Notes: a model not told the origin generated them from the sequence alone. Positions 26,393-64,000 are shown, counted from the first letter of the stretch. The stretch is DNA of 64,000 nt from Acidimicrobiia bacterium (GCA_035462175.1 DATHUP010000049.1:52614-116613), one strand, 5' to 3'. Program-made: numbers and translations.

Positions 26393-26401
26393 AGGTCGCC
26401 C

Positions 26402-27931: not shown

Positions 27932-29388
27932 TCGCCACGCCCGAGATCTCCTGGATCGCCATCGCCCCCGACCTGGCCCTCGCCGTCGGTGCTGCCCTGG
28001 TGCTGCTGGTCGACGTGCAATGGAAGCCGCGGCCCGTGGTGCTGGGATGGGTTGTCGGGGCCACCCTGGCCGTGGTGGCCGGTTTGACCATCCTGCAATG
28101 GCTGATCGGGACCGACGCCGTGGCCGCGGGGGACAGCGCGAGCCTGATCGCGTTCTCCGGGATGATCACGATGGACGGGTTCACCGTCTTCGCCCGTCTC
28201 GCATTGATCGCTGCGACGGCACTGGGTGTGACCGGCGGCTGGCGCTTCGTGGTCGGGATGGGCCGTCGCGGGGCGGAGGCCCTGGCCCTCGTCTTGCTGG
28301 CGACGGCCGGCTTCTCACTGATGGTCGCCTCCAACAACCTGGTCATGATGTTCCTCGGTCTGGAAGTCGGCTCGATCTCCCTCTACGTGCTCGCCGGGCT
28401 TGCCCGGGAGAGAAGGGAATCTGAGGAGGCGGCGATCAAGTACTTCCTGCTCGGGTCCTTTGCCTCCGCCCTGTTCGTGTACGGGGTGGCCCTGATCTAC
28501 GCCGGCACCCGGCAATTCCAGATCCTCGAGATCCGGCACTACCTGGACAACTTCATCGTGACCAACCCGGCGGTTATCTACGTCGGGCTCGGGCTCGTGA
28601 TCGCCGGTCTCGGGTTCAAGGTGTCGGCCGCCCCCTTCCACGCCTGGGCCCCCGACGTCTATCAGGGGGCGCCGGCCGGACTGGTCGGATACCTGGCCGC
28701 GGTGGCGAAGATCGCCGGATTCGCCGCCATAGCCCGGGTCCTGCTCACCGCTCTCCCCGAACTGGACGCCGCCTGGATGCCGGTTGTGGCCGGGATCTCG
28801 GTCGTGTCCATGACTCTCGGCTCGTTGCTCGCCCTCGTCCAAGGGGACGTCCGCCGGCTACTCGCCTACTCCGGAGTGGCCCACGCCGGGTTCATCATGA
28901 CCGGCGTCGTCGGCGGGTCGACGGAGGCGATCCTGTTCTATCTGGCCATCTACTCCATCCAGCTGCTCGGCGCCTTCGCCGTGGTGTCGGTGGTGAGCGG
29001 CCCCGACGGGGCCGGGTCGGCTCTGGATCGGTATCGCGGGCTGGGTCGGCGAAGCCCTCTCCTCGCCTCGTCCTTCGCCGTCCTCCTCCTGGGGATGGGG
29101 GGTCTGCCCCTGACCTCGGGGTTCGTGGCCAAGTTCGGCGTGTTCACCGAGGCGTGGGCCCGGGGATACGAATGGCTGGTCATTGTGGCCGTGGTGGCAT
29201 CGGTGGTCGCCTTTGCCTTCTATATCCGGGTCATCGTCGTGATGTACATGGACGACGCCGGGGACGAGGAGTCGTTGAGGGTCGGGCCCGAGGGTTGGGT
29301 GTTGGCGGTGGCTGTCGGAACGACGATTCTCTGGGGCATCTTCCCGTCGTCGCTTCTCGATCTGGCAGCTGATGCGCTTCCGCTATAG
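27928..29388 (+). CDS. nuoN: NADH-quinone oxidoreductase subunit N
   Basis: ND2-like antiporter subunit; ATGA overlap with nuoM. Confidence 0.9.
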   Translation: MIATPEISWIAIAPDLALAVGAALVLLVDVQWKPRPVVLGWVVGATLAVVAGLTILQWLIGTDAVAAGDSASLIAFSGMITMDGFTVFARLALIAATALGVTGGWRFVVGMGRRGAEALALVLLATAGFSLMVASNNLVMMFLGLEVGSISLYVLAGLARERRESEEAAIKYFLLGSFASALFVYGVALIYAGTRQFQILEIRHYLDNFIVTNPAVIYVGLGLVIAGLGFKVSAAPFHAWAPDVYQGAPAGLVGYLAAVAKIAGFAAIARVLLTALPELDAAWMPVVAGISVVSMTLGSLLALVQGDVRRLLAYSGVAHAGFIMTGVVGGSTEAILFYLAIYSIQLLGAFAVVSVVSGPDGAGSALDRYRGLGRRSPLLASSFAVLLLGMGGLPLTSGFVAKFGVFTEAWARGYEWLVIVAVVASVVAFAFYIRVIVVMYMDDAGDEESLRVGPEGWVLAVAVGTTILWGIFPSSLLDLAADALPL

Positions 29389-38603: not shown

Positions 38604-39749
38604 CTAGGTACTTCGTCGTCGGGCCGACCCGGCCAGGGGTCTGATCTCCAGGTCCTCGAGACAGAGCTGCCCGAGGTGCACCTGGCCGTGGTGGTAGCGG
38701 CAGAGGAGACAGAGATTGTCGATCACGGTCTCGCCTCCATCGAGCCAGGGGACGATGTGGTGGACATCGCACCAGCTGGCCGAGCGTCCGCAGCCGGGAG
38801 CGACGCAGTGACGATCACGGGCGATCACGCCCCGACGTAGCCCGGCCGGGATCACCCTGGTCTTGCGGCCGACGTCGAGCACTTCGGAGGCGGGGCCGAA
38901 GACGATCCTCGACACCGAGGCGTCGCAGGCGAGCTGACTCACCGCGAACGGGTCGAGGACAAAGCCGCCGTCGGTCTCGTGGAGACCTCCCGGGCGATCA
39001 TGCAGGCCGTCGAGGTCGACATGGATGTTCAGGTGGGGGCGCTCCCCACCAACGAGCGCCGTCTCGGAACCTTCGAGGTAGCTGCGAGCGAGATCCCCGA
39101 GGGCATCGGCGCGTCGCTGGGTCGTGGTCCGCTTGTCGTTGTCAGCCGGAGGCGGCATGAGAGTGTCGACAGCCGCGAGCAAGCCCTCTCCTTCCAGCTG
39201 CGGCAGTAGGAACTCGCCGGCGACCATTCCGTTGTGCCTCCTCGTCAGGTCGAAGCGTCGACGCTGTAGCTGGTCTTCGAGATCGAGCCGCACGCCGGGG
39301 AGGTCTACGTCGCTTCGCCAGTAGTCGAGGACCCGCCTGGTCTCGTCGACACCATCGCCGACGAGCTCGAGAAGGACACTCTCCGCTTCGGGGTACTTGT
39401 CCGGAAGGCGCTCGGATGCCTTGAACATGAGCTCGGCCTCGTCACCCGAGATCTGACGATGTCTCCATGCCGAGAATGTGGCCGCATGCTTCGTCGCGGC
39501 CCGGGCGATCCTCACGTACCGATGCGCCCGGCCGCCGGCCATCCGCATCCGGTGCTTGAGATAGGCGACCATCGACGGGTACCCCATGACATTGTGGTCT
39601 GACGCCGCTTCGGCAGCAGCGAGGGTCTCGGTCCATTCGACATCGAGGGCATGACGCGCTGCTTCGAGCAGCATCAGATGCTCGTCACGTTCGTCCAGCG
39701 AGGCGGCGGACGGGTCTTCGAGTCGGGGGATGATGATCGGCATCATCCT
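38604..39749 (-). CDS. DUF222 / HNH endonuclease (REP13E12-like), intact copy
   Basis: HNH motif HHIVPWLDGGETVIDNLCLLCRYHH; DUF222 N-region; probable start at the MMPIIIPR methionines (the ORF track extends to 40031 through antisense of a methyltransferase remnant). Confidence 0.65.
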   Translation of the reverse strand, partial: RMMPIIIPRLEDPSAASLDERDEHLMLLEAARHALDVEWTETLAAAEAASDHNVMGYPSMVAYLKHRMRMAGGRAHRYVRIARAATKHAATFSAWRHRQISGDEAELMFKASERLPDKYPEAESVLLELVGDGVDETRRVLDYWRSDVDLPGVRLDLEDQLQRRRFDLTRRHNGMVAGEFLLPQLEGEGLLAAVDTLMPPPADNDKRTTTQRRADALGDLARSYLEGSETALVGGERPHLNIHVDLDGLHDRPGGLHETDGGFVLDPFAVSQLACDASVSRIVFGPASEVLDVGRKTRVIPAGLRRGVIARDRHCVAPGCGRSASWCDVHHIVPWLDGGETVIDNLCLLCRYHHGQVHLGQLCLEDLEIRPLAGSARRRST

Positions 39750-39859
39750 CTGCGAGGTCCTTCCCCTTCCCATGCCCACAACGTACAAGGAGGGTCTGAC
39801 AGATATCACCGGCTGGAAGAAAATCGCAAGCAGTCGCAATCCGATCGTCCCTACATCCC

Positions 39860-40202
39860 CGCCGGTGCCGCCGAGCATCTCGATCCTGGTGGCCGTTTCG
39901 TCATCGAGGTGGGTGTCCCCGACCTGCGCCGCCTGCCTCCGGGTCAAACCAGCATCGTCTTCCGCTCCGACGACACCGGCTGGAACATCGACGACTACGA
40001 CGTGGCCAACCAAGGGCTGATCTCGCATCACCTCGACCTGGTCGACGGAGACATCAGACGATTCTCGGTGCCATTTCGCTTACGTGTGGCCGGGCGAGCT
40101 GGACCTGATGGCTGAGATGGCCGGGATGAAGTTCGTCTCGCGTCATGCCGGCTGGGCCCGGGAACCGTTCACCGGCGACAGCCGAGAGCACGTCTCGGTC
40201 TA
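39860..40202 (+). pseudogene. 3' fragment of a class I SAM-dependent methyltransferase, frameshifted
   Basis: ...AAEHLDPGGRFVIEVGVPDLRR...DDYDVANQGLISHHLDLVDG...RFSVPFR then +1 frame YVWPGELDLMAEMAGMKFVSRHAGWAREPF; no N-terminal part present. Confidence 0.35.
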
Positions 40203-43053: not shown

Positions 43054-43647
43054 TCAGGGCAGGACCCATGTGGTGAATTCGACCGATGCCTTCCTGTCGT
43101 CGGCGATCTCCAGTGCAGCCGAGCCCGACCGGGCCCATTGGACCGCAGGCTCCAGGCGGACGTCGAGCTCGATGTGAAGACTCCTCCGGCCCGGTGGCAC
43201 CTCGAACTCCCACCAGGTCCATTGTCCGGTGCTGTAGGTGCTCGACGGAGTTGGACTGAGCCCGTTGAGGTCGAGCATGGCCAGATAGGACGTGGTCAGC
43301 CCGACGGCGACCATCCCGGGCAAGGTGGATCCGTCGACAGTCGACACTTCCGCGCTCCAGGGTGTCGCCAGGCCGGGACGGCTGACCTCGGTGTGTTTGA
43401 CCTGCAGCACGTATCCATCGCCGGAAGACTCCACCACGCCGGTTCGAACTCCGAGCAGCCCGACCGCGGCGGCCAGAACGATCGCCGCGACCAGGGCGAT
43501 GGACGCGGTGTGGAAACGTCGCTCCCAGCGGTTCCAATGCTCGGGTGGCTCGTCGGGAATCGTCGAGCTGTTCAGGGCGGGGGAGCCCGGATCGGGCGCT
43601 CCATCCATGGCCCGGAGATTTACCCCCGGGATTTGGTTTCCTAACAA
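43054..43647 (-). CDS. hypothetical membrane-anchored protein
   Basis: Single TM (IALVAAIVLAAAVGLLGV), extracytoplasmic domain; no motif recognised. Confidence 0.35.
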   Translation of the reverse strand: MLGNQIPGVNLRAMDGAPDPGSPALNSSTIPDEPPEHWNRWERRFHTASIALVAAIVLAAAVGLLGVRTGVVESSGDGYVLQVKHTEVSRPGLATPWSAEVSTVDGSTLPGMVAVGLTTSYLAMLDLNGLSPTPSSTYSTGQWTWWEFEVPPGRRSLHIELDVRLEPAVQWARSGSAALEIADDRKASVEFTTWVLP

Positions 43648-43706
43648 CAGGAACCCTCATCGTCTCCGGTTTGGGGATGGCGGCGAGGGGGAATCGTTGC
43701 CCGTTC

Positions 43707-44738
43707 ATGACCATCGAAGACTCGATGTCGCTCGCTGCGCACGCCGGTCTGCACTATGTCGCCGAGGAGACCCCTGGTCTGCGGCGGATCCGGCGGGGAC
43801 GGGGGTTCTCCTACGTCGGCCCCGATGGCGGGACGGTCAACGGCGAGGTCCGGAAGCGGATCGAATTGCTAGTGATACCGCCGGCCTGGGAAGGGGTTTG
43901 GATCTCACCCGATTCGTCGGGGCACATCCTGGCCACCGGCTACGACAGTGCCGGGAGGAAGCAGTACATCTATCACCCGCTCTGGGAGCAGGTCAGGGAC
44001 GAGGCGAAGTTCGAGCGGATGGGCGAGTTCGGGCGCCGCCTGGCCAGGTTGCGTCGCCGGATGGACTCCGATCTGAGACGACCCGGGCTGTCCCGGGAGA
44101 AAGTGACGGCTCTTGCCGTCTCGGTCCTGGATCGGACGCTCATCCGGGTGGGCAACCGGAAGTACGCCGACGAGAACGAGGCCTACGGGCTGACCACACT
44201 CACCTGTGACCATGTCGAGGTGGACGGCTTCCACGTCCATCTCGAGTTCGCCGGCAAGGGTGGCGCCGATCACCAGTTGGTGTTCCGCGACCGCCGGCTC
44301 GCTTCGTTGATTGCCCGCTGCCAGGAGCTGTCCGGACAGACCCTCTTCGGGTATGAGACGGGCCAGGGTGTGAGCCCGATCACGTCGACCGACGTCAACG
44401 GCTACCTGTCCGAGGTGATGTCGGGCCCGTTCACAGCCAAGGACTTCCGGACCTGGGGGGCGAGCACGGCCGTGGCCGAGGACCTGGCCACCGGCCCCGA
44501 CAACGAAGACGCCGAGGTCCGGTTGTTGCGGGCAATCGACGCGACGGCCGAGAAATTGGGCAACACACGGGAGGTCTGCCGCAGCTCCTATCTGCATCCA
44601 ATCATCCCCGAGGCTTTTCGGGCCGGGTCGCTGCAGAAGACATGGGCCCGATCCCGTCGCGGCCTGTGGCTGGGGCGGGCCGAATCGGCGGTGAACCGGC
44701 TGGTAGCGGAACGAGTCGGGTCGAACGGTTCTGTTTGA
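43707..44738 (+). CDS. DNA topoisomerase IB (poxvirus/eukaryote-type Topo I)
   Basis: TopIB catalytic region (FRTWGAS...RSSYLHP with active-site Tyr region), N-terminal DNA-binding domain; ORF track starts 43545. Confidence 0.75.
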   Translation: MTIEDSMSLAAHAGLHYVAEETPGLRRIRRGRGFSYVGPDGGTVNGEVRKRIELLVIPPAWEGVWISPDSSGHILATGYDSAGRKQYIYHPLWEQVRDEAKFERMGEFGRRLARLRRRMDSDLRRPGLSREKVTALAVSVLDRTLIRVGNRKYADENEAYGLTTLTCDHVEVDGFHVHLEFAGKGGADHQLVFRDRRLASLIARCQELSGQTLFGYETGQGVSPITSTDVNGYLSEVMSGPFTAKDFRTWGASTAVAEDLATGPDNEDAEVRLLRAIDATAEKLGNTREVCRSSYLHPIIPEAFRAGSLQKTWARSRRGLWLGRAESAVNRLVAERVGSNGSV

Positions 44739-47016: not shown

Positions 47017-47096
47017 AGCTGTGCCTCCACACTTGGCCTGTCGGCGTCCCTTACCCTCCCCACCACGTGGGAAAACCCGCCGGGGGTCACCTCCGC

Positions 47097-48731
47097 ATGA
47101 TCAGTCCGCGTCAAGCCCTCGGTGCTGCGCTTTGGAGGCTCTCCGACCTGGTCCGGGCCGATGAGAGAGGTCGCTCCTTTCGGGCCAAGGCCTACCGGAA
47201 GGCGGTTTGGTCGCTGGACGACCTCCCCCCGGACCTGGCCGGGCCTGTCGAGGCCATGCTCGCCGTCCCCGGCATCGGGCCCGGGGTCCTCAGGCTCGTC
47301 GACGAGTTCCGGTCCAGCGGCGAGATCTCACTTCTGGAAGCGCTCAGGGAGCAGTATCCGCGCGACGTGGCCAGGCTGCGGAAGCTGCCCCGGATGACTC
47401 CCGCCCTGCTCAGGTCTCTCAAAGGGGAGCTCGGTGTGGACCAGACCGCCGACCTGATCGCAGCGGTAGAGAGCGGTGCAGTCGAGACCCTCAAGGGCGT
47501 GGGCCCGACCACGGCGGATCGATGGGCTCGCGCCCTCGAGCTGGCACCCTCGGCGAAGGCGATTCCCGCCTTCGAAGCGGCGGGGCTCGCCGGGAGTCTC
47601 GATCACCACCTGACCCACCACCATGGCGGGAGAACCTGGGTTGCAGGCGCGGTGCGCCGACTCGACGAATGGGTGGAGACAATCGACCTGGTCTCGGAGA
47701 TGGACGATCCGATCCGGGTTGGCCGGTTCCTCGAGGAGACCGCGGTGGCCCGCTTCCTCGGCCAAACCGGAGCAGGGACATCGACGCTCGAGTCTCACGA
47801 CGGTGTCGGGCTCCGGGTCCATTTGGCCCCAGCGGGTGAAGGAGGAGCCCGGCTCATCGAAGCGACTGGGCCACCGGACCACGTCGCCACATTGGTCCCC
47901 GGGATCGACGACGCCACCCTGTCCGAAGCCGAGATCTATGCCCGCCGGGGTCGGGTGTGGATCCCGGCCCCTGCACGCGGTCTCCCGGAGAATCAGGCAA
48001 TCGGTGTGGTCCGCTCGACGGAGATCCGCGGCGACCTCCACATTCACACCGAACGATCACCAGACGGCCGGATGAGCCTCGGCGAGGTTCTCACCACCGC
48101 GGTGGACCTCGGCTACGAGTATGTCTTGATCACAGATCACACCTCGGGCCTCCGCTTCGGGGGACTCGACGAGCAGGAGCTCGTCATGCAACGGGCCGAG
48201 ATCGACGCGGTCCGGGGCCGCTTCCCCGATCTCTTGGTGCTCCACGGGGCTGAGTTGAACATCGACCGCGACGGCGGGCTCGACATCGGCGACGAAGGTG
48301 TGGCGCTCCTCGACCTAGCAGTGGCCGGGCTTCACTCCCACTTCGATCTGGGGCGGGAGGAACAGACGGCCCGTGTGCTCACTGCCATGCGTCATCCGGT
48401 TGTGCGGATCCTGGCGCACCCCACCGGCCGACGGATCGGGATCCGCCCCGCAGTCGACCTCGACGTCGAGGCGGTGATCGCCGCTGCGGTGGACCACGGC
48501 GTGGCGTTGGAGGTCAACGGCCATCGCGACCGGCTCGATCTGTCCGCCGATCTCGCCAAAGCGGCTCTGTCGGGCGGGGCGATGCTGGCGGCGAACTCGG
48601 ACGCCCACAGAATGGGAGAGTTGGGCAACGTTGCCAACTCGGTGGGCACCCTGCAGAGAGCCGGTGTTGCCCCGGCATCCGTCGTCAACACGCTGCCCCT
48701 CCCGCGTTTCCAGGACTGGATCTCGGGATGA
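47097..48731 (+). CDS. PolX-family DNA polymerase/PHP-domain phosphoesterase
   Basis: N-terminal Pol-beta-like 8-kDa/HhH region (SFRAKAYRKA, GVGP), C-terminal PHP (DLHIHTERSPDG...ITDH...HGAE...AHP); ORF track starts 47067. Confidence 0.75.
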   Translation: MISPRQALGAALWRLSDLVRADERGRSFRAKAYRKAVWSLDDLPPDLAGPVEAMLAVPGIGPGVLRLVDEFRSSGEISLLEALREQYPRDVARLRKLPRMTPALLRSLKGELGVDQTADLIAAVESGAVETLKGVGPTTADRWARALELAPSAKAIPAFEAAGLAGSLDHHLTHHHGGRTWVAGAVRRLDEWVETIDLVSEMDDPIRVGRFLEETAVARFLGQTGAGTSTLESHDGVGLRVHLAPAGEGGARLIEATGPPDHVATLVPGIDDATLSEAEIYARRGRVWIPAPARGLPENQAIGVVRSTEIRGDLHIHTERSPDGRMSLGEVLTTAVDLGYEYVLITDHTSGLRFGGLDEQELVMQRAEIDAVRGRFPDLLVLHGAELNIDRDGGLDIGDEGVALLDLAVAGLHSHFDLGREEQTARVLTAMRHPVVRILAHPTGRRIGIRPAVDLDVEAVIAAAVDHGVALEVNGHRDRLDLSADLAKAALSGGAMLAANSDAHRMGELGNVANSVGTLQRAGVAPASVVNTLPLPRFQDWISG

Positions 48732-55230: not shown

Positions 55231-56421
55231 ATGGTGCTAGACCAGGATCTGGTCCGCCACCTCTCCGAGTCTTCGGTGTCGGTGGAGCTCGACACCGAGG
55301 ACATGACCCTCAACATCGGGCCCCAGCACCCGTCGACTCACGGCGTTCTCCGACTCAAGGCACGGGTGGACGGCGAACGCGCCTTCGACGTGCAACCGGT
55401 CATCGGCTACATGCATCGCGGCTACGAGAAGCTGTCGGAGGCGAGGACCTACCCCCAGATCACCACCCTCGTCAACCGCATCGACTGGGTGTCGGGTTAC
55501 GCCAACGAGATCCCCTTCATCGTCGCCGCCGAGAAGCTGCTCGGCGTCGAGGTGCCGGAGCGAGCCCAATACATCCGGCTCATCCTCACCGAAATGGCCC
55601 GGATCTCCTCCCACCTGGTCTTCATGGCGTCCTACCCGCTGGAGCTGGGGGCGGCCACCCCGCTCTTCTTCGCCCTGAGGGAGCGGGAGCGTGTGCTCGA
55701 CCTGCTCGAGGGTGTGACCGGTGGCAGGTTCCACCCGAACTTCAACCGGATCGGCGGGGTCAAGCCGGCGTACGGGTCGGGCTCGGCGACCCGGAAGGTG
55801 ATCCAAGACCTCCCTGCCGGGTTCCTCGCCGAGACCAGGGATGCGATGGACAAGGTGGTGGAGGCGGTGGACGAGCTGAATCAGCTGGTTGCCGACAACG
55901 AGATCATCGTGGCCCGGACCAAGGGGGTCGGGGTCCTGCCCCCCGAGGTGGCTGCCGCATACGGGGTCTCCGGGCCCAACCTCCGTGCCTCCGGAGTCGG
56001 GTTCGATCTGCGCAAGGTGGAGGACTACCTCCCCTACCACCTGTTCGACTTCGAGATCCCGACCGGGGAGAACGGCGACTGCTGGGATCGATGGCATGTC
56101 CGCCTCCTCGAGATTCGCCAGTCGGTGCGCATCGTCCAGCAGGCGATCGACGGCATCCCCTCCGGCCCGCTCCAGGCCAAGGTGCCCAAGGTGATCAAGG
56201 TGCCTCAGGGAGAGACCTATGTCCGGGCGGAGAACCCGAAGGGGGAGATGGGCTACTACCTGGTCTCCAACGGCAACCAGGGCCCCTACCGGCTGAAGAT
56301 CCGCTCCGCCAGCTTCTCCAACATCTCGATCCTTCCCTGGATCCTGGAGGGTGTCCTGGTCCCCGACATCATCGCCATCATGGGAAGTCTGGACTTCGTG
56401 TTGGGGGACGTGGACCGATGA
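55231..56421 (+). CDS. nuoD: Nuo-like complex subunit D (cluster 2)
   Basis: NIGPQHPSTHGVLRL...RSASFSN motifs; no N-terminal acidic extension, unlike cluster 1 NuoD. Confidence 0.9.
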   Translation: MVLDQDLVRHLSESSVSVELDTEDMTLNIGPQHPSTHGVLRLKARVDGERAFDVQPVIGYMHRGYEKLSEARTYPQITTLVNRIDWVSGYANEIPFIVAAEKLLGVEVPERAQYIRLILTEMARISSHLVFMASYPLELGAATPLFFALRERERVLDLLEGVTGGRFHPNFNRIGGVKPAYGSGSATRKVIQDLPAGFLAETRDAMDKVVEAVDELNQLVADNEIIVARTKGVGVLPPEVAAAYGVSGPNLRASGVGFDLRKVEDYLPYHLFDFEIPTGENGDCWDRWHVRLLEIRQSVRIVQQAIDGIPSGPLQAKVPKVIKVPQGETYVRAENPKGEMGYYLVSNGNQGPYRLKIRSASFSNISILPWILEGVLVPDIIAIMGSLDFVLGDVDR

Positions 56422-56439
56422 GTGCTCGCTTCGCTGATT

Positions 56440-56518
56440 TGGCTACGAGCTACGAGCCACGAGCAACGGGCCAGAGCGCGATTCTGGCTCGTCGCTCGTT
56501 GCCCGTTGCTCATCGCGT
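56440..56518. repeat. intercistronic heptamer-periodic hairpin repeat, copy R2
   Basis: gctacgagctacgagccacgagcaacgg / GCCAGAGCGCGattCTGGC apex / gctcgtcgctcgttgcccgttgctcatcgc; between nuoD2 and nuoH2. Confidence 0.8.
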
Positions 56519-56533
56519 CAGGAAGGACACCCA

Positions 56534-57538
56534 GTGTCCTTCCTGACCGAGCTGTTCTCCAACTTCTGGGTCTCTCTTGCCGGGAAGCTGCTCATCGTCG
56601 CTCTCATGATCCCGCTCGTGGGCATGGTCATCGGGTTCGCCGAGATGAAGCTCTCGGCCAAGATGCAGGCACGGGTCGGCCCCTACTTCGCCGGGGGACG
56701 CTGGGGCTGGGCACAGCTCATCGCCGACGGGGTCAAGTTCTTCCAGAAAGAGGATCTGATCCCCACCGAGGCGGATCGCCCGGTGTTCAAGCTGGCGCCT
56801 GTGCTGGTGCTGGTGAGCACGGTCGCCCTTCTGGTGGTGATCCCCTTTGGCCCGGACCTGATCTTCCGCGATCTCTCGGTCGGCATCTTCTACGCCCTCG
56901 CTATCTCCTCGCTGAGCACTGTCGGGATCCTGATGGCCGGCTGGTCGTCGGGCAACAAGTACTCGCTGATGGGTGGGCTCAGGGCCGCCGGACAGCTGAT
57001 CGCCTACGAGCTGCCCCTGGTGCTGGCCGTCGTGGGCGCGGTCATGCTGGCCGGGACCATGAGCATGTCCGGGATCGTCGAGGCCCAGATCGAGGCCGGG
57101 TACCCCTTTGTGGTACTCCAGTTCCTCGGCTTCGGGATCTTCCTGATCGCCGCCCTCGCCGAGCTGAGTCGGATCCCCTTCGACATGCCCATCGCCGAGT
57201 CGGAGCTGGTGATGGGATATCTGACCGAGTACTCGGGATTCCGTTTCCTGTTCTTCTTCCTGGCCGAGTTCGCCAATATGTTCACCCTGTCGGCGATCGC
57301 CGTGACCCTTTTCCTCGGCGGCTACTGGCTTCCCGGGATCCCCGAGGACGTCCTCGCCTATGCCGGTCCGGTGATCCTCATCGCCAAGACCTTCCTCCTC
57401 GTCTTTGTCATGATCTGGTTCCGCTGGACCTTCCCCCGGTTCCGAGAAGACCAGTTGCAGAGCATGGCCTGGAAGTGGTTGATCCCGATCGCCCTGGCCA
57501 ACATCCTCCTCACCGGAGCCTTCAAGGTGTACCTATGA
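56534..57538 (+). CDS. nuoH: Nuo-like complex subunit H (cluster 2)
   Basis: ND1-like; GTG start embedded in the palindrome gtcaggaaggacac-cca-gtgtccttcctgac. Confidence 0.9.
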   Translation: MSFLTELFSNFWVSLAGKLLIVALMIPLVGMVIGFAEMKLSAKMQARVGPYFAGGRWGWAQLIADGVKFFQKEDLIPTEADRPVFKLAPVLVLVSTVALLVVIPFGPDLIFRDLSVGIFYALAISSLSTVGILMAGWSSGNKYSLMGGLRAAGQLIAYELPLVLAVVGAVMLAGTMSMSGIVEAQIEAGYPFVVLQFLGFGIFLIAALAELSRIPFDMPIAESELVMGYLTEYSGFRFLFFFLAEFANMFTLSAIAVTLFLGGYWLPGIPEDVLAYAGPVILIAKTFLLVFVMIWFRWTFPRFREDQLQSMAWKWLIPIALANILLTGAFKVYL

Positions 57539-58035
57539 CCAGCGCCACCGACCGACGTGTGCTTCCCGGCGTGGGGATGCTCAAGGGCCTCTGGGTGACC
57601 ATCTACACCATGTTCCGCACCATCTTCCGTCCCGGGAAGTACCTCGCCACGATCAACTACCCGGTGGTCAAGGAGACCCCGGTGCCCCGGGCGCGGGGCG
57701 TCATCGCCCTGGACCAGGAGGCGTGCACGGTGTGCATGCTCTGTGCCCGCCAGTGCCCCGACTGGTGCATCTACATCGAAGGGCACAAAGAGGAGAAGGA
57801 GCCGGACAAGCCCGGGGGCAGGGTCAAGGTGCGGAACACGCTCGACCGTTTCGACATCGACTACGCGCTCTGCATGTACTGCGGGATCTGTGTCGAGGTG
57901 TGCCCGTTCGACGCCCTGTTCTGGTCACCGGAGTACGAGTACTCCGAGACGCAGATGGGCGACATGTTGCACGACATGGACCGTCTCCAGGACTGGCTCG
58001 CCACCGTCCCCGACAATCCGGAGCTGGAGAAATGA
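57535..58035 (+). CDS. nuoI: Nuo-like complex subunit I (cluster 2)
   Basis: Two 4Fe-4S motifs (CTVCMLCARQCP, CMYCGICVEVCP). Confidence 0.85.
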   Translation: MTSATDRRVLPGVGMLKGLWVTIYTMFRTIFRPGKYLATINYPVVKETPVPRARGVIALDQEACTVCMLCARQCPDWCIYIEGHKEEKEPDKPGGRVKVRNTLDRFDIDYALCMYCGICVEVCPFDALFWSPEYEYSETQMGDMLHDMDRLQDWLATVPDNPELEK

Positions 58036-58039
58036 GAGC

Positions 58040-58113
58040 TCGGCTTCGCCTCGCCGCTGCGAGCTACGAGCTTCGAGCTACGAGTTGCTCTGGCTCGTTG
58101 CTCGTTGCTCGTT
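58040..58113. repeat. intercistronic heptamer-periodic hairpin repeat, copy R3
   Basis: gagctacgagcttcgagctacgag / ttgctctg / gctcgttgctcgttgctcgttgctcatggc; between nuoI2 and nuoJ2. Confidence 0.8.
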
Positions 58114-58129
58114 GCTCATGGCGCCCGGA

Positions 58130-58690
58130 GGGTGGATCGTGAGTTTCGGCGACTGGGTGTCCGAGCCGGTCAACTGGGTGTTTCTCGTCGTCGGGGCCCT
58201 GGTGCTGGTTTCCGCGTTCCGGGTGGTCACCGCTAAGAACGTGGTGCACGCCGCCCTGTTCCTGGTTGCCGCTCTGGCCGGGACCGCAGTGCTCTTCCTC
58301 ATGCTCTCCGCCGAGTTCGTTGCCTGGGTCCTGGTGTTGGTCTACATCGGCGCGGTGATCGTCCTGTTCCTGTTCGGGATAATGATCACCCGGGCCCCCA
58401 CCGGTCGTGACGTGGGCCTCGACGTGGAGAAGCGACTGTGGGCCGGGATCCTGTCCCTAGCCACCTTCGTGCTCCTCTCCTGGGCCTCGATCGACGCTTT
58501 CGGATCGACCCGGATCGAAGAGGTGGGAGAGGCCACCTCGACCGAGGTCCTCGGGCTGGCCCTGTTGGGTCGATTCGTCATCCCGTTCGAGGTGGTCTCC
58601 TTTGTTCTCCTCGCGGCCCTGATCGGGGGGATAACCATCGCCCGCCGCGATCTCACTCCCCTCGAGGAAGAGCAGAGGAGCTCGGTATGA
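58130..58690 (+). CDS. nuoJ: Nuo-like complex subunit J (cluster 2)
   Basis: ND6-like; GTG start 7 nt after GGAGGG (the alternative ATG at 58109 lies inside the repeat and has no RBS). Confidence 0.75.
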   Translation, partial: GWIVSFGDWVSEPVNWVFLVVGALVLVSAFRVVTAKNVVHAALFLVAALAGTAVLFLMLSAEFVAWVLVLVYIGAVIVLFLFGIMITRAPTGRDVGLDVEKRLWAGILSLATFVLLSWASIDAFGSTRIEEVGEATSTEVLGLALLGRFVIPFEVVSFVLLAALIGGITIARRDLTPLEEEQRSSV

Positions 58691-58770
58691 GAGCCATGAG
58701 CCACGAGCTACGAGCGACGAGCCGGAGCGCGTTGCTGGCTCATTGCCCGTCGCTCGTTGCACGTCGCGCA
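58691..58770. repeat. intercistronic heptamer-periodic hairpin repeat, copy R4
   Basis: gagccatgagccacgagctacgagcgacgagc / GCCGGAGCGCGttgCTGGC apex / tcattgcccgtcgctcgttgcacgtcgc; between nuoJ2 and nuoK2. Confidence 0.8.
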
Positions 58771-58790
58771 TCGTTCGCCGGAGGTGAACG

Positions 58791-59096
58791 ATGCTTCTGA
58801 ATCAGTTTCTGATTCTCGCGGCGGCAATGTTCTCGCTTGGGATCTACGGGCTGTTGGTCCGGCGCAACATCGTGCTCATCCTGCTCTCGGTCGAGTTGAT
58901 GCTGGCCGCGGTGAACATCAACCTCATCGCCTTCGAAGCGGTGCTGCGCAGCCCTGATGCGATCGGCCAGGTGTTCGCCATATTCGTGATCACCGTTGCC
59001 GCCGCCGAGGTGGGCATCGGTCTCGCCATCGTCCTGATGATCTTCCGCAACCGGAAGTCGGCCAACGTCGACGAGCTCCACCTGATGAGATGGTGA
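58791..59096 (+). CDS. nuoK: Nuo-like complex subunit K (cluster 2)
   Basis: ND4L-like, 101 aa; start codon inside the hairpin gcatcgttc-gccggaggt-gaacgatgc. Confidence 0.85.
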   Translation: MLLNQFLILAAAMFSLGIYGLLVRRNIVLILLSVELMLAAVNINLIAFEAVLRSPDAIGQVFAIFVITVAAAEVGIGLAIVLMIFRNRKSANVDELHLMRW

Positions 59097-59109
59097 GAGC
59101 GTCGCTCCG

Positions 59110-59195
59110 CTCCGCAGCTACGAGCTATGAGCTTCGAGCTCTGAGCCAGAGCGCGTCTTCGGCTCGTTGCTCGTTGCTCGTTGCCCGTTGCCCGG
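59110..59195. repeat. intercistronic heptamer-periodic hairpin repeat, copy R5
   Basis: gcagctacgagctatgagcttcgagctctgagcc / AGAGCGCG apex / ggctcgttgctcgttgctcgttgcccgttgccc; between nuoK2 and nuoL2. Confidence 0.8.
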
Positions 59196-59205
59196 AGGTC
59201 ACGAA

Positions 59206-61233
59206 GTGACCTCCGTCCTTGCCACCGAGGCGGAGCAGGCGGTCGAAGCCGGCATCACCGGCGGCTTCTTCGTGGACACAGCCGGAATCATGCTGGTACT
59301 GCCCTTCGTCGCCTTCCTCCTCATCATCGCCTTCGGGAAGCGGATGAGGAACCAGGGGGCGGAGCTGGCCATCGGGGCTCTCACCGTCAACACGGTGTGG
59401 GCCACCGTCCTCTTCGTGATGAACATGACCGACGGGGTGCTCGCCACCACCACCTTCGAGATCGGCCGGATCGGGAGCAATCTCGTCTTCGAGCTGGGGT
59501 GGGTGGTCGACGGGCTCTCCATCATGATGTACTTCCTGGTCAGCCTGGTGGGCCTGATCGTGTTCATCTACGCGGTGGGCTACATGCACGGCGACGTCAG
59601 GGTCCCCTGGTTCTTCGCCGCCTTCTCCCTGTTCGCCGGTTCGATGCTGGTCCTGGTGGGGGCCCCCAACTTGATCCAGCTCATCATCGGCTGGGAAGGG
59701 GTCGGTCTCGCCTCTTACCTGCTCATTGCCTTCTACTGGGAGGACATGGCCAATGTGAACGCGGGCAACAAGGCTTTCATGGTCAACCGCACCGCCGACA
59801 TCGGGCTCATGCTCGGGGCGATCATCGTGGCGGTGGCGGTGGGCACCTTCGACTTCGCCGCCATCAACGAGGCCGCCGTCGCCGGGCTCGGCGCGCTCTC
59901 CACTGTCGCCGTAGTGGGTGGGGCACTTCTCTTCGTCGGGGCGATGGGCAAGAGTGCCCAGTTCCCCTTCCATATCTGGCTTCCCGATGCCATGGCCGGC
60001 CCGACCCCGGTCTCTGCTCTGATGCACGCAGCGACGATGGTCACCGCCGGGGTGTACCTCATGGGCCGGATGTTCCCTCTCTTCCAGAACATGGCCACCG
60101 AGCTCAGGCCCTGGATGGTGGTCATCGGCGCCGTCACGCTGTTCGCCCTGGGCTTGCTCGCCCTGGTCGCCGACGACATCAAGAAGGTGCTGGCCTATTC
60201 GACCGTGTCCCAGCTCGGCTACATGATGACCGCGGTCGCCGCCGGCGGCTACACCGCCGGGCTGTTCCACCTGTTCACCCACGCCTTCTTCAAGGCCTTG
60301 CTCTTCCTGGGTGCGGGATCGGTGATACATGCCGTCCACTCCAACAACATGAGCGATATGGGCGGTCTGAGGAAGTTCATGCCCCGCACCTACTGGACCT
60401 TTGTGATCGGGGCCTTGTCCCTGGCCGGGATCTTTCCCCTGGCCGGGTTCTGGTCCAAGGACGAGATACTGGCCACCCTCGGCTTCGAGGGGTACACCGC
60501 GATCATGTGGATCGCGGTCGCCGGCGCATTCGTCACCGCCTTCTACATGACCCGTGCCGTCGCTCTCACCTTCCATGGGGAATACAAGGGGCACGGGCAT
60601 CCCCATGAGTCACCGAGAGTCATGACCGGCCCACTGATCGCCTTGGCCATCCCCTCGGTCCTCTTCGGGCTGTTGAACATTCCCGGTGTCGGGTTCCCGG
60701 TCATCGGCAACTTCACCGAGTGGCTGGCGGTGCGAGCGGTCCCGATGGGGGACCATCACGCCGAGGGGATCGACTTCCTCCTCGCCGGAGCCGGGCTGCT
60801 CGCCGCCCTGGGCGGCATCGCCCTGGGCTGGCTGGTCTGGGGCAAGGACCGGGATACCCAGGCGGAGCGGGACCGCTTCCAGATTCCTGCTCTCTACCCG
60901 CTGCTCCGCAACAAGTATTTCGTGGACGACCTCGCCGACGGTGTCGTGGCGGGGACCATGGGGCCGCTCGCCCGTTTCACCAATTGGGTCAACGACTACA
61001 TCATCGACGGGATCGTCAACGGGGTCGGGTTGCTCACCAGAGGTTTGGGCTCGTTCGTCTACGGGGTGGTTGACCAGAAGGGTGTCGATGGTGTGGTCCA
61101 CGGTTTGTCGGCGGGAGCCGACGGCGCCGGGTCGGCTCTGCGTAGGTGGCAGACCGGCCGGGTGCAGCAGTATGCGGCATCGGTGGTCGGGGGCGCCCTG
61201 ATCCTGATAGTCCTGTTCGTGTTCGTGAGATAG
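59206..61233 (+). CDS. nuoL: Nuo-like complex subunit L (cluster 2)
   Basis: ND5-like; GTG start inside the perfect palindrome ggaggtcac-gaa-gtgacctcc (the ORF-track start at 59167 reads through the repeat). Confidence 0.85.
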   Translation: MTSVLATEAEQAVEAGITGGFFVDTAGIMLVLPFVAFLLIIAFGKRMRNQGAELAIGALTVNTVWATVLFVMNMTDGVLATTTFEIGRIGSNLVFELGWVVDGLSIMMYFLVSLVGLIVFIYAVGYMHGDVRVPWFFAAFSLFAGSMLVLVGAPNLIQLIIGWEGVGLASYLLIAFYWEDMANVNAGNKAFMVNRTADIGLMLGAIIVAVAVGTFDFAAINEAAVAGLGALSTVAVVGGALLFVGAMGKSAQFPFHIWLPDAMAGPTPVSALMHAATMVTAGVYLMGRMFPLFQNMATELRPWMVVIGAVTLFALGLLALVADDIKKVLAYSTVSQLGYMMTAVAAGGYTAGLFHLFTHAFFKALLFLGAGSVIHAVHSNNMSDMGGLRKFMPRTYWTFVIGALSLAGIFPLAGFWSKDEILATLGFEGYTAIMWIAVAGAFVTAFYMTRAVALTFHGEYKGHGHPHESPRVMTGPLIALAIPSVLFGLLNIPGVGFPVIGNFTEWLAVRAVPMGDHHAEGIDFLLAGAGLLAALGGIALGWLVWGKDRDTQAERDRFQIPALYPLLRNKYFVDDLADGVVAGTMGPLARFTNWVNDYIIDGIVNGVGLLTRGLGSFVYGVVDQKGVDGVVHGLSAGADGAGSALRRWQTGRVQQYAASVVGGALILIVLFVFVR

Positions 61234-61248
61234 GAGAGGCAGAGAGCG

Positions 61249-62871
61249 ATGGAATTGTTCGAAACGTGGGCCCTGACCCTGATCGTCTTCCTGCCTCTGG
61301 CCGGTGCCCTCCTCCTCGGGTTGGTCCCCAAGGAGAACGAGGGGGCGCTGAAGGCGTTGTCCCTCCTCGTCACCGGCGCCGCCTTCATCCTCTCCGTGGT
61401 CGCCATCGGTCTGTTCGACTTCTCCGGCGCCCCCTACAACACCTATCAGTTCGAGGTCAACGAGAGCTGGATCGGGGCGATCAACGCCAACTACCACATT
61501 GGCATCGACGGGATCAGCCTTCCCATGCTCGTCCTGTCCACCTTCGTCATGGTGCTCTCGGTGATCTACAGCTGGAATCACTGGGAGGAGCCGAGGAACC
61601 CCAAGGTCTTCCTCATCCTCATGCTGATCCTGGCCACCGGGCTCAACGGCACCTTCGTCGCCCTCGACCTGGTCCTGTTCTTCATCTTCTTCGAGGTGGT
61701 CCTGGTCCCGATGTACTTCATGATCGGGATCTGGGGCGACCGGTCGCCACGCAGGCTGCCCGGGTTCGGCAGGGAGGTGCAGACCCGTCTCTACGCCGCC
61801 ATCAAGTTCTTCCTGTTCACCCTGTTCGGGTCGGCGTTCATGCTCCTCGGCTTCCTGGCCCTCTACTTCGCCTCGGGCGACGCCAGCGAGACCGGATTGC
61901 GCACCTTCGACATCGTCGAGCTCACCGTCCTCGGATCGGAAGGTGCTTTCACCGGCACCTTTGCCTTCCTCGTGTTCGGGGCGATGTTCCTCGGGTTTGC
62001 GGTCAAGGTGCCGATGTGGCCTCTCCACACCTGGCTGCCCGACGCCCACACCGCCGCCCCCACGGTCGGCTCGGTCTTGCTGGCCGCCATCATGCTGAAA
62101 CTCGGCTCATACGGGTTCATCCGCATCTCGCTGCCGATTCTCCCCGATGAGGCGCGCAACTGGGCTCCTGCCATCGCCATCCTCGCCGTGATCGGGATCA
62201 TCTACGGCTCGCTGGCCTGTCTCGCCCAGACCGACATGAAACGGCTCATCGCCTTCTCCTCGGTCGGTCACATGGGATTCGTGATGCTGGGGATCGCGAC
62301 CCTGACCGACGTCGGGATCAACGCGGCCGTCATCGGGATGGTGGCCCACGGTTTGATCACGGGTCTCCTCTTCTTCCTGGCCGGCTCGATGTCACATCGT
62401 TATCACACGAGGGAGATGTCCCGCCTCGGGGGCAACATGAGGTTGATGCCGGTGATGGGGGGCATCCTCGCCTTCACCGCGATGGCATCCCTCGGTCTGC
62501 CCGGCCTGGCCGGGTTCTGGGGCGAGTTCATGTCGCTGGTGGGCGCCTACAACCCCCTCGACGGGCTCTCCCTGGGTGTGTTCCGCACCTCTATGGTCCT
62601 CGGGGCGGTCGGGACCGTACTCACCGCCGGGTACATGCTCTACATGCTGCAGCAGGTCAACCTGGGTGAGCCGGGCGAAGAGTGGCAGGGTCGTGAGTTC
62701 CACGACGTGGACCGCTTCGAGATGACCGCCTGGGTCCCACTAATCGTCCTGATCGTGGTGGTCGGGTTCTACCCCAAGATCATCTTCAACGCCACCACCG
62801 ACAGCGTGGTGTCCCTGGTGGAGATGGTGTTCAAGCCGGAGACCGTCGCCTCGCTGGGCTCGGGAGGATGA
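61249..62871 (+). CDS. nuoM: Nuo-like complex subunit M (cluster 2)
   Basis: ND4-like antiporter subunit, 540 aa. Confidence 0.9.
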   Translation: MELFETWALTLIVFLPLAGALLLGLVPKENEGALKALSLLVTGAAFILSVVAIGLFDFSGAPYNTYQFEVNESWIGAINANYHIGIDGISLPMLVLSTFVMVLSVIYSWNHWEEPRNPKVFLILMLILATGLNGTFVALDLVLFFIFFEVVLVPMYFMIGIWGDRSPRRLPGFGREVQTRLYAAIKFFLFTLFGSAFMLLGFLALYFASGDASETGLRTFDIVELTVLGSEGAFTGTFAFLVFGAMFLGFAVKVPMWPLHTWLPDAHTAAPTVGSVLLAAIMLKLGSYGFIRISLPILPDEARNWAPAIAILAVIGIIYGSLACLAQTDMKRLIAFSSVGHMGFVMLGIATLTDVGINAAVIGMVAHGLITGLLFFLAGSMSHRYHTREMSRLGGNMRLMPVMGGILAFTAMASLGLPGLAGFWGEFMSLVGAYNPLDGLSLGVFRTSMVLGAVGTVLTAGYMLYMLQQVNLGEPGEEWQGREFHDVDRFEMTAWVPLIVLIVVVGFYPKIIFNATTDSVVSLVEMVFKPETVASLGSGG

Positions 62872-62877
62872 TGGCTG

Positions 62878-62958
62878 GCAAGCGAGCTACGAGCTACGAG
62901 CTTCGAGCTACGAGTCGGAACGGTCTGGCCCGTTGCCCATTGCTCGTTGCTCGTCGCC
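62878..62958. repeat. intercistronic heptamer-periodic hairpin repeat, copy R6
   Basis: gcgagctacgagctacgagcttcgagctacgag / tcggaacggtct / ggcccgttgcccattgctcgttgctcgtcgcctcg; between nuoM2 and nuoN2. Confidence 0.8.
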
Positions 62959-63001
62959 TCGAGGGTTGCCGACGGGCAAAGTCGGCCGGCAAGGAAAAAC
63001 A

Positions 63002-64000
63002 GTGACCTTCGAGATCGACTATCTGGCCCTGGCGCCCGAATTCGTGGTGGTGGGGACGATGCTCGGAGTGTTCACTCTCGACCTCGTCCTTCCCCGCGCC
63101 CGGAAGTACTGGACCGCCACCATGGCCGTGGCCGGCACCACCCTCGCCGCCGTCCCCCTGGTCCTCCTCGCATCCGAGGGGACGACCAGGTCGATGTTCG
63201 ACGGTTCGTACGTTGTGGACGAGTTCGCAGTCATCCTCAAAGGCGTCTTCCTCGTCTCGGCATACATCGTCCTTCTCATGTCCCACCATTACATCGAGTC
63301 GGATCGCTACTACCAGGGCGAGTACTACTTCCTCCTCCTGGCGTCGGTGCTCGGCTCCCTGGTCATGGCATCTGCTCGAGACCTGATCATCCTGTTCATC
63401 GGTCTCGAGCTCACCACCGGGCCCCTCTACATGCTGGCAGGATGGAGAAAGGGCGACGCCAAGTCCAACGAGGCCTCGATGAAGTACTTCATCCTCGGGG
63501 TCCTATCGACGGCGATTCTGCTCTACGGGATGTCGATGCTGTACGGATTGACGGGGGAGGTCACCTTCGCCGGTCTCGCCGAGGCGACCACGGGCATGGC
63601 CGACGAGCCCGCCATCATCGTGGCCGTGTTCGGGCTCATCGTCGGGTTCGGGTTCAAGATCTCGGCGGTGCCCTTCCACTTCTGGGCGCCGGACACCTAT
63701 GAAGGGGCGCCCACGCCGGTGACCGCCTATCTCTCGGTCAACTCGAAGGCAGCCGGATTCGTCGCCTTCCTCCTCATCATGTACCAGGCCCTTCCCGGGC
63801 TCTCCGAGATCTGGGCTCCGGCGCTGTGGCTGCTGGCTGTCTTGTCCATGACGGTGGGCAACCTGGCCGCCCTGCGTCAGAGCAACATCGTCCGTCTACT
63901 TGCCTACTCGTCGATCGCACAGGCAGGTTTCATGCTGGTCCCCTTCGCCGCGGCGGCCGTGGCGGGAGCCGACCTGGCCGAGGCGTTCTCGGCGACCGTG
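63002..64000 (+). CDS. nuoN: Nuo-like complex subunit N (cluster 2), 3' end outside the window
   Basis: ND2-like (GLELTTGPLYML, KISAVPFHFWAPDTYEGAPTPV); GTG start after a short hairpin gccgac-gggcaaa-gtcggc; the ORF-track entry 62947..63702 is a wrong-frame read through the repeat. Confidence 0.8.
   Translation, partial: MTFEIDYLALAPEFVVVGTMLGVFTLDLVLPRARKYWTATMAVAGTTLAAVPLVLLASEGTTRSMFDGSYVVDEFAVILKGVFLVSAYIVLLMSHHYIESDRYYQGEYYFLLLASVLGSLVMASARDLIILFIGLELTTGPLYMLAGWRKGDAKSNEASMKYFILGVLSTAILLYGMSMLYGLTGEVTFAGLAEATTGMADEPAIIVAVFGLIVGFGFKISAVPFHFWAPDTYEGAPTPVTAYLSVNSKAAGFVAFLLIMYQALPGLSEIWAPALWLLAVLSMTVGNLAALRQSNIVRLLAYSSIAQAGFMLVPFAAAAVAGADLAEAFSATV

Follow-up and report, generated by a model that had tools for sequence, protein, structure and literature searches.

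Heptad-periodic hairpins at nuo gene junctions

The DNA analysed here is a stretch of 64,000 nucleotides from an Acidimicrobiia bacterium (GCA_035462175.1 DATHUP010000049.1:52614-116613), which we call the window. It contains two clusters of nuo genes, and seven of their intergenic spacers hold long hairpins built from 7-nt units (heptads), five in nuo cluster 2 (nuo2) and two in nuo cluster 1.

56422-56533, plus strand: E1, type A (GCTACGA / GCTCGTT), from the nuoD2 stop (56419-56421) to the nuoH2 GTG (56534); 112 nt, fold -57 kcal/mol, z -4.7
58036-58138, plus strand: E2, type A, nuoI2-nuoJ2 spacer
58691-58790, plus strand: E3, type A, nuoJ2-nuoK2 spacer
59097-59205, plus strand: E4, type A, nuoK2-nuoL2 spacer
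62872-63001, plus strand: E5, type A, nuoM2-nuoN2 spacer, with an extra 27-nt insert
24321-24426, plus strand: E0, type A, nuoK1-nuoL1 spacer of cluster 1; fold -56.5 kcal/mol, z -6.0
26311-26401, plus strand: E0b, type C (TCTACGT / ACGTAGG), nuoL1-nuoM1 spacer of cluster 1; fold -48.1 kcal/mol, z -4.8

The identity of the flanking nuo genes was borne out by Pfam and by the gene calls of orthologues, and an independent gene caller run on the source contig found downstream start codons identical to those used here. A 119-kb metagenome contig from ENA (k141_368896, L188) is 99.9% identical to the window, and the NuoK homologues belong to named metagenome-assembled genomes (MAGs) of Acidimicrobiia.

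An earlier note on this DNA had described such hairpins at the D-H, I-J, J-K, K-L and M-N junctions of nuo2. All five are present, although the M-N spacer extends about 40 nt further than was given there (to 63001) and the two copies of cluster 1 had been overlooked. From stop to start, each nuo2 spacer measures 100-130 nt, with GCTACGA-like units in the left arm and GCTCGTT-like units in the right arm. The heptad arms with their one systematic mismatch per heptad were recovered as well: Tandem Repeats Finder (TRF) reports period-7 arrays on both arms, and every heptad has one U.U mismatch on the plus strand. Local self-similarity at period 7 was found in 11 segments, and at periods 4, 5, 8, 10 and 11 in none. 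The 16-mer GCTACGAGCTACGAGC, with up to 3 mismatches allowed, has 34 matches in the window versus 0.46 expected.

Upon folding, every spacer yields an imperfect, long hairpin with an energy between -48 and -57 kcal/mol (z -2.2 to -6.0 against shuffled sequences), and the opposite strand folds about equally well. The apex that the note had assigned to three copies, GCCAGAGCGCG-N3-CTGGC, is exact in only one copy; the others carry variants, yet the apex is conserved at other loci. As had also been described, the nuo2 junctions without an element are overlapping or tight: H-I is ATGA, L-M measures 15 nt, and A-B, B-C and C-D overlap or abut, as judged by homology with the gene calls of relatives.

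At the Rfam gathering score none of the elements had a match, and below the threshold only generic microRNA-precursor hairpins appeared (25-30 bits versus thresholds of 70-83). In a scan for terminator and promoter motifs no site coincided with any element. The elements lack the GC-rich hairpin with T-run of an intrinsic terminator; the terminator-like sites found all fall elsewhere.

Empty and filled sites

As references for nuo2 we used the closest NuoK2 relatives with long contigs (L001, L003, L005 and L007, about 80% DNA identity). They have the same 11-gene nuo2 operon and the same flanking phosphodiesterase gene, without the spacers. In these four relatives the five sites are overlapping or 2-3 nt junctions:

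D-H: ATGA
I-J: (A/G)TGA
J-K: TGATG
K-L: TAGGGATG
M-N: TGACGCTTG

No seed heptamer is present at the empty sites. At the K-L junction of cluster 1, L183 and L185 have nothing but an ATGA overlap, and in L182 the leader and the tail of the element are present while exactly 60 nt of the hairpin are gone. All five nuo2 junctions are filled in two metagenomic relatives with 92-95% identity, Ga0299914_10004271 (L158) and Ga0214468_1000041 (L128, L151, L170 and L175). The comparison of orthologous junctions, which the earlier note had proposed, hence gives empty overlaps at about 80% identity and filled sites at about 93%.

The left border of the elements is always directly 3' of the TGA of the upstream gene, and the right border is usually an (A/G)TGA that serves as the new start codon. 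Examples, with the borders marked by slashes, are cgATGA/ctctgg...cattcgATGA/ccgct (L151 D-H), gGTGA/gagcg...cgaaGTGA/cctcc (window K-L) and cATGA/gaagcc...gcaGTGA/agctc (L136 secY-adk). Both borders thus carry (R)TGA (R, A or G) as a direct repeat of 3-4 nt. This repeat could equally be a short target duplication, the result of insertion 3' of a TGA target, or a residue of selection.

A dispersed family with interchangeable heptads

The hairpins at these sites are not all built from the same unit. Four types of left and right arm were found:

Type A, GCTACGA / GCTCGTT: in the window, all five elements of nuo2 and the K-L element of cluster 1
Type B, ATTCGGT / ACCGACT: L158 D-H, J-K and K-L
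Type C, TCTACGT / ACGTAGG: window 26311-26401
Type D, TCTAGGT / ACCTATG: L006 K-L

In L158, which is 92.5% identical to the window, the D-H, J-K and K-L hairpins consist of type B units, and the leader at D-H and the tails at J-K and K-L are still similar to those of the window. The TCTAGGT-type hairpin of L006 K-L occupies a site that is empty in the closest relatives. Since hairpins of different heptads are found at the same sites, the architecture is conserved and the heptad is interchangeable.

A metagenome scan with a two-arm pattern returned 55 loci, about one third of which are chance matches in coding DNA. The true type A copies have in common the arms and an apex near GAGCCAGAGCGCGTTCTGGCTCG (CCAGAGCGCG..CTGG). 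In L136, a related contig, they lie at rplO-secY, at secY-adk and after rplQ (genes assigned by Pfam), and L152 again has copies at rplO-secY and secY-adk. A copy in L154 is located upstream of an ORF (open reading frame) that is probably leuS, judging by its leucyl-tRNA synthetase-like N-terminal sequence and without a Pfam check. Two further settings are the copies of L174, apparently between convergent genes as read from the sequence, and those of L142, which appear to follow predicted terminators. For six copies that are located away from operon junctions, the ORF-based context is ambiguous, as this high-GC DNA has many open frames. All copies between co-directional genes have the same orientation, that of the genes. 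No copies were found in viral contigs.

The earlier note had considered a small mobile element that targets intercistronic spacers. The empty junctions of relatives, the copies at unrelated operon junctions and the single orientation between co-directional genes bear this out, and we are highly confident that the elements are insertions belonging to a dispersed repeat family. The best explanation of this family is that of dispersed, insertion-prone intercistronic hairpin elements in a clade of Acidimicrobiia.

The bridging reading frame

Every element of the window contains a reading frame of 33-45 codons on the coding strand (mini-ORF). It starts at the ATG or GTG of the old overlap at the left border and, in the window, stops at a TGA that overlaps the downstream start codon or follows it by at most 10 nt.

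56418-56546, plus strand: E1 mini-ORF, 42 codons; its ATG overlaps the nuoD2 TGA, and its TGA lies 10 nt past the nuoH2 start
58032-58142, plus strand: E2 mini-ORF, 36 codons, from ATGA to GTGA
58687-58800, plus strand: E3 mini-ORF, 37 codons
59093-59209, plus strand: E4 mini-ORF, 38 codons, from GTGA to GTGA
62868-63005, plus strand: E5 mini-ORF, 45 codons, from ATGA to GTGA
24317-24430, plus strand: E0 mini-ORF frame, first ATG at 24320
26307-26408, plus strand: E0b mini-ORF, 33 codons

This bridging frame is open in all 23 elements between co-directional genes and spans 18-45 codons. Its stop is located at +1 relative to the downstream start (an NTGA overlap, -4) in 15 of the 23 and at +4, +7, +10, -3, -5 or -13 in the others. 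All seven window elements, and 21 of the 23 hairpin elements overall, have spacers whose length is 1 mod 3, and orthologous spacers differ by multiples of 3 (D-H 112/100/97, I-J 103/109/109, J-K 100/106/100, M-N 130/103/103). The 27-nt extra of E5 (62962-62990) has its own small hairpin, GCCGAC-GGGCAAA-GTCGGC at about 62968-62986, and does not occur in the orthologous elements of L158 and L128; it leaves the frame intact (130 nt versus 103 nt). One heptad more is present in the 116-nt K-L element of L170, where a change of the loop from GAA to TAA provides a stop at -3 in the shifted frame.

Stop triplets avoid this frame. The plus strand of the spacers has 29 of them, none in the bridging frame and 18 and 11 in the other two (binomial p = 8e-6), and the minus strand has 81. 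The earlier note had held that all six frames are open and that the resulting ORFs are spurious. The former does not apply, as the minus strand of the left arm (TCGTAGC) has a TAG in every frame. The latter overlooks what looks like the key functional feature: a particular frame, open and in register, connects the stop of the upstream gene with the start of the downstream gene. The open bridging frames, taken as noise at that time, are the most informative feature of the elements.

The mismatch in each heptad is placed exactly where a perfect complement would give a coding-strand TAG: type A has TCGTTGC in place of TCGTAGC, and type B has CGGTATT in place of CGGTAGT. Units with TAG persist in three elements (window 26311-26401, L006 K-L and L158 J-K). 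In these three, TAT or TAC (TAT in E0b) stands in the sole unit where a TAG would fall in frame. On the plus strand, none of the three frames meets a stop within the heptad arms. Consequently, the core can be entered in any frame, and the register depends on the total length only; a 7-nt unit without stops is open whatever the entry frame and thus suits a translated insert. Judging from these constraints, the bridging frame is quite likely to be under selection.

Some relatives have unusual junctions of other kinds. Among the relatives of cluster 1, L184 has two 10-nt spacers of the form ATGA...GTGA (6300-6320 and 8200-8215), with mini-ORFs of 5-6 codons and no hairpin. In L183 (8185-8255) a 23-nt unit (CCCCATGTTGAGAGGCAGGTCCT) that includes the nuoM start codon is tandemly duplicated 2.5-fold. 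The nuoK of L185 (6001-6393) is called as a protein of 130 amino acids across the junction, 30 residues longer than its homologues.

Small hairpins at the borders

Most tails have a GGAGG-type motif 6-8 nt 5' of the new start codon. In addition, most elements contain a small hairpin with a 3-nt loop, the 3' arm of which consists of the start codon and the first codons of the downstream gene. The z-scores of these start-codon hairpins reach -7.9. In E1 the hairpin pairs a Shine-Dalgarno (SD)-like AGGAAGGA and the GTG start with the first nuoH2 codons.

56517-56547, plus strand: E1 start-codon hairpin, GTCAGGAAGGACAC-CCA-GTGTCCTTCCTGAC; -29.7 kcal/mol, z -7.3
58768-58794, plus strand: E3 start-codon hairpin, GCATCGTTCGCC-GGA-GGTGAACGATGC
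59193-59215, plus strand: E4 start-codon hairpin, CGGAGGTCAC-GAA-GTGACCTCCG
24418-24432, plus strand: E0 start-codon hairpin
26382-26401, plus strand: E0b SD hairpin

The stems differ between orthologues yet remain complementary, since changes in the 5' arm match different N-terminal codons. At D-H three different stems (window, L151 and L158) are equally complementary, and at J-K the stem GUUCGCC/GGUGAAC is replaced by CUCCAACC/GGUUGGAG in an orthologue. Such matched changes may reflect either selection for sequestration of the start site or a copying process at the DNA level.

Perfect or near-perfect palindromes were also observed at the left borders in cluster 1. They comprise the last codons of the upstream gene, its stop codon and the reverse complement of these, and mirror the start-codon hairpins of the right borders. 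Either selection or an inverted duplication mechanism may be their origin.

24315-24341, plus strand: E0 left palindrome, GGCTGATGATGC-TTC-GCATCATCAGCC, includes the nuoK1 stop
26302-26325, plus strand: E0b left palindrome, GGCGGATGAGC-AA-GCTCATCCGCC, includes the upstream stop codon

A proposed translational relay

As the explanation of these features as a whole, we favour, with some reserve, a mobile intercistronic element that keeps translational coupling by a relay of ribosomes. Such an element consists of a short leader, a heptad hairpin of 60-80 nt, an SD tail and usually a new (A/G)TGA start, inserted directly 3' of an upstream TGA, typically at a former stop/start overlap (ATGA, GTGA or TGATG). 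With transcription presumably running through the element, a ribosome would terminate at the upstream TGA and re-initiate at the overlapping ATG or GTG of the mini-ORF. Translation of the mini-ORF would melt the big hairpin and then the small one in which the SD and the start codon of the downstream gene are hidden, and termination at the (A/G)TGA overlap would pass the ribosome to the downstream cistron. The ancestral coupling, and hence the subunit stoichiometry, would be kept after insertion and made obligatory, and the spacer would also stay covered by ribosomes. Because ribosomes would be passed from gene to gene, insertions probably do little harm. Coupling by termination and reinitiation is typical for the subunits of heteromeric complexes (PMC6728339, PMC10666635). 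A -1 frameshift into the bridging frame was considered and is unnecessary, since the retained ATG or GTG of the old overlap already opens this frame.

Several points weigh against such a relay. Most tails have a good SD at normal spacing, by which the downstream gene could be initiated independently. The big hairpins (about -50 kcal/mol) begin about 20 nt after the re-initiation codon and could hinder re-initiating ribosomes. The frame of E0 opens with CTG, the ATG following one codon later; two mini-ORFs fall short of the start codon, with ends at -13 and -5, and an element of 116 nt is out of register. Some copies sit outside operon junctions, where a relay is unneeded. The copies are not independent, as three genomes share orthologous elements, and the p-values are therefore optimistic. 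The covariance analysis mentioned in the earlier note gave no support: in 15 type A copies all paired columns are invariant, so that RNAalifold finds no covariation and the alignment is uninformative. Likewise, 1x1 loops in folds without GU pairs comprise 30 G.U versus 26 A.C, a noisy count that includes the flanks, and thus give no wobble-pair or strand signal. Neither a transposase nor a clear target-site duplication was found, and the (R)TGA repeat could stem from selection instead of insertion chemistry. Translation of the mini-ORFs is suggested by sequence constraints.

A wider reading can be proposed tentatively, and we consider it rather doubtful. The heptad hairpins would be widespread, undescribed mobile palindromes of soil and sediment bacteria that are translatable in any frame, with heptad slippage tuning subunit ratios and CTAC/GTAG acting as a cleavage signal of the HUH type. 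If this is true, the 7-nt unit, whose length is no multiple of 3 and which can lack stops in all three frames, would give the palindromes translatability in any frame and let them colonise the stop/start overlaps of essential operons. One heptad gained or lost would move the end of the bridging ORF relative to the next start, and slippage would be a heritable dial on subunit ratios. An HUH-type enzyme would move the elements or swap their cores, cutting at the CTAC/GTAG that is kept in one arm of each unit.

Alternative explanations

The elements might, as in the main idea of the earlier note, be untranslated RNA hairpins, similar to repetitive extragenic palindromes (REPs) and bacterial interspersed mosaic elements (BIMEs), that block 3'-5' exonucleases or guide RNase III/E and so set the stabilities of nuo segments. 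Stable folds on the transcribed strand, positions inside operons without terminator tails and the copy after the last gene of an operon (rplQ, L136), where a stabiliser makes sense, all fit this idea. For REPs, too, a location mainly 3' of ORFs, between unidirectional genes, and a function as RNA elements are known (PMC3733652, PMC3184786). However, RNA hairpins as such explain neither the spacer register (21 of 23 at 1 mod 3) nor the one stop-free frame with its frame-specific change of TAG to TAT/TAC, nor the stop codon on the downstream start, and neither a wobble-pair bias nor covariation was seen. A role of this kind is compatible with the relay and does not exclude it; as the sole explanation we regard it as unlikely.

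Less probable still is that the elements are purely selfish palindromes of single-stranded DNA, moved by an HUH/Y1 or other transposase, and that the open frame and the SD are what is left after harmful insertions have been purged. Presence and absence between relatives, the swapped cores, the one deleted hairpin and the copies in non-coupled contexts would all be expected of such DNA. Heptad types A, B and C moreover contain CTAC on one arm (GTAG on the other strand) and type D contains CTAG, which we take as a lead only. GTAG is the tetranucleotide that REP-associated tyrosine transposases (RAYTs) cut in REPs (PMC3733652); its tie to the heptads is such a lead and not a test. In the window, GTAG lies within the paired arms and not in an unpaired terminal tag, and a Pfam scan of 40 window ORFs, in which only the IS30-like gene and HNH proteins appeared, revealed no Y1/HUH enzyme or other transposase of this sort. 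This explanation overlaps largely with the relay and differs only with regard to the use as a relay, which selection on the frame would imply.

The two remaining explanations are both very improbable. In the first, each junction would have expanded a local heptamer by slippage and then formed a palindrome, without movement between sites; heptamer repeats are over-represented in many bacteria with slippage as the proposed cause (PMC4692102), the heptad number varies between orthologues and one-armed arrays exist (window 3131-3152; L136 rpmD-rplO), but the empty sites hold no seed heptamer, and an independent origin cannot account for the same heptads, apex and similar leaders at unrelated junctions and operons. 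In the second, the arrays would be bound by an oligomeric protein (cold-shock or HutP-like) that recognises single-stranded nucleic acid with a footprint of 7 nt and regulates the operon. The strict 7-nt register would suit such a protein, and CspB binds one heptamer per monomer, as discussed for TAACTGA repeats (PMC4679880). The architecture is nevertheless filled by at least four unrelated heptads, with different ones even at the same site, which argues against sequence-specific recognition, and the frame constraints are left unexplained. We know of no candidate protein.

Comparison with known repeats

Mycobacterial interspersed repetitive units (MIRUs) are most similar in their manner of working. 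A MIRU contains an ORF that overlaps the stop and the start of its neighbours, which was read as keeping translational coupling so that insertion is tolerated (PMC12548453 citing Supply 1997; PMC3184786). The elements described here share with MIRUs the actinobacterial host, the location between genes of polycistronic operons in the orientation of the genes (all 7 window copies, 23 overall), filled and empty orthologous sites and very short flanking direct repeats. The ORF ends overlap the neighbouring stop and start (-4) as in MIRUs, here exactly in 15 of 23 and in the rest within -13 to +10 nt. In contrast, MIRUs are units of 40-100 bp, often in tandem arrays (variable number tandem repeats, VNTRs), and their descriptions mention neither a construction from 7-nt units nor one long hairpin. 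In the present family, a single element with an internal period of 7 nt occupies each site, its core is made from at least four different heptads, and a separate hairpin hides the downstream start codon. This comparison is one by description of the repeats.

Palindromes of the REP/BIME type with GTAG or CGTC tags have RAYTs as their transposases (PMC3733652, PMC2817692). REPs resemble the present elements in being GC-rich extragenic palindromes that mostly follow ORFs, between genes in unidirectional or convergent arrangement; they are plausibly transcribed and differ from strain to strain. Of the four heptad types described above, three have CTAC, which is GTAG when read on the opposite strand, and CGTC is present in some units of the right arm. 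However, REPs are shorter (20-40 bp) and bear the tetranucleotide as an unpaired tag at one of their ends, whereas the present hairpins measure 60-80 nt and are periodic, with the tetranucleotide repeated within the paired stem. By Pfam, no RAYT was found among 40 window ORFs, and REPs are not known to carry bridging ORFs.

[quoted passage not shown] MITEs differ in having terminal inverted repeats (TIRs) that match an insertion sequence (IS) and target-site duplications (in Chunjie 21-bp TIRs and 9-bp direct repeats), whereas here the whole element is a palindrome with flanks of only 3-4 nt (R)TGA. To our knowledge, the elements have no parent IS. The only IS in the window (IS30-like, 7894-8886) has no evident connection to them, although its ends were not compared with the elements. 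Integron attC sites were ruled out, since the nuo genes are not cassettes and the codons of relatives overlap at these sites.

The earlier note had thought heptad-periodic arms unusual. They are not unique to this genome, as hairpins of other heptads occur in many phyla and over-representation of heptamers is on record (PMC4692102, PMC4679880). The published heptamer repeats (cyanobacterial heptanucleotides, Xanthomonas GGGAATC, Beggiatoaceae TAACTGA), the function of which is unknown according to the same papers, are tandem intergenic 7-nt units with several heptamers per genome. Some form inverted pairs, some are intercistronic (pecE-pecF) or end just before start codons, and related species lack them at the same sites. 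In contrast to the present elements, they are mostly one-armed direct arrays of other sequences in other phyla, several of them with stops in gene orientation. For none of them has a hairpin been described whose bridging ORF keeps register with the genes on either side.

In known coupling by unmasking of the ribosome-binding site (PMC12548453; for overlaps PMC6728339, PMC10666635), the SD and the start of the downstream gene pair with the first part of its coding sequence, the upstream frame terminates on the start codon and the genes encode subunits of heteromeric complexes. All of this resembles the present junctions, except that the coupling frame is here provided by an inserted repeat and not by the upstream gene itself. 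Taken together, the element works like a MIRU, lacks the unit size and the tandem arrangement of MIRUs, and by defining features is neither a REP nor a classical MITE. Our best reading is that of intercistronic repeats which preserve translational coupling, as proposed for MIRUs, with a new heptad-hairpin architecture.

Overlapping stop and start codons are the main device that fixes subunit ratios in complexes such as complex I, and they are expected to be among the worst insertion sites. After MIRUs, the present elements would be a second, independent solution, which brings its own relay frame, locks the downstream start codon and keeps the coupling. The frame-specific removal of TAG offers a purely sequence-based handle on translated small ORFs in uncultured bacteria, and the elements give a concrete context for the long-noted, unexplained excess of bacterial 7-nt repeats. 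For annotation, gene callers may produce spurious long ORFs through such elements in high-GC DNA (cf. the nuoK of L185).

Heptad repeats elsewhere and genes around the clusters

A scan of genome contigs with the degenerate right arm GCYCGTY x3 was loose, and the matches listed include many plain GCCCGTC/GCCCGTT arrays from many phyla. Also among the matches listed are hairpins made of heptads of unrelated sequence; the MAGs that contain them belong to Chloroflexota, Acidobacteriota, Gemmatimonadota, Planctomycetota and Deltaproteobacteria. Intergenic two-arm heptad hairpins were seen in L008, L016, L017, L022, L035, L049, L051, L064, L066, L073, L075, L104, L113 and L118. Units found in other phyla are, for example, GGATTTT/AAAATCC, GCGATGA/TCATCGC and GGTGAAT/ATTCACC, and some hairpins are nested with two or three heptad types. 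The one hairpin that was inspected (L017) has TGA within its units. Hence, the relay property would be specific to the Acidimicrobiia family and not general.

One-armed arrays were also noted. At 3131-3152 of the window (context 3120-3190) the sequence CCGACTA CCGACTA CCGACCA consists of the unit that is also used in the right arm of the L158 type B hairpins. This array immediately follows the TAA of the ORF 2724-3122, precedes a terminator-like hairpin and faces a convergent Rex-like gene (3176-3799, minus strand). Another is a GGTACTT/GGTACCT array in L136 (3183-3216; also L177, 3830-3866), situated in the ribosomal-protein operon of L136 between rpmD and rplO and adjoining the type A hairpins at rplO-secY and secY-adk.

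Cluster 1 of the window (11262-29388) is split: nuoA-nuoD extend to 14131, three minus-strand genes follow, and nuoF (17504), nuoG and nuoH continue to nuoN. The same arrangement is found in the source contig (L188).

14190-15176, minus strand: ORF of 328 amino acids
15176-15604, minus strand: PadR
15619-17124, minus strand: amidohydrolase

The IS30-like transposase gene (HTH_38 and rve, 7894-8886, minus strand) lies inside a segment of 1047 bp (7882-8928). This segment is missing from the 99.9% identical contig k141_368896 (L188), which indicates an insertion polymorphism within the population. The following genes are located between the two nuo clusters:

38607-40079, minus strand: protein with DUF222 and HNH endonuclease domains
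43401-44735: bacterial type IB topoisomerase
47019-48728: PolX-like protein (HHH and PHP)

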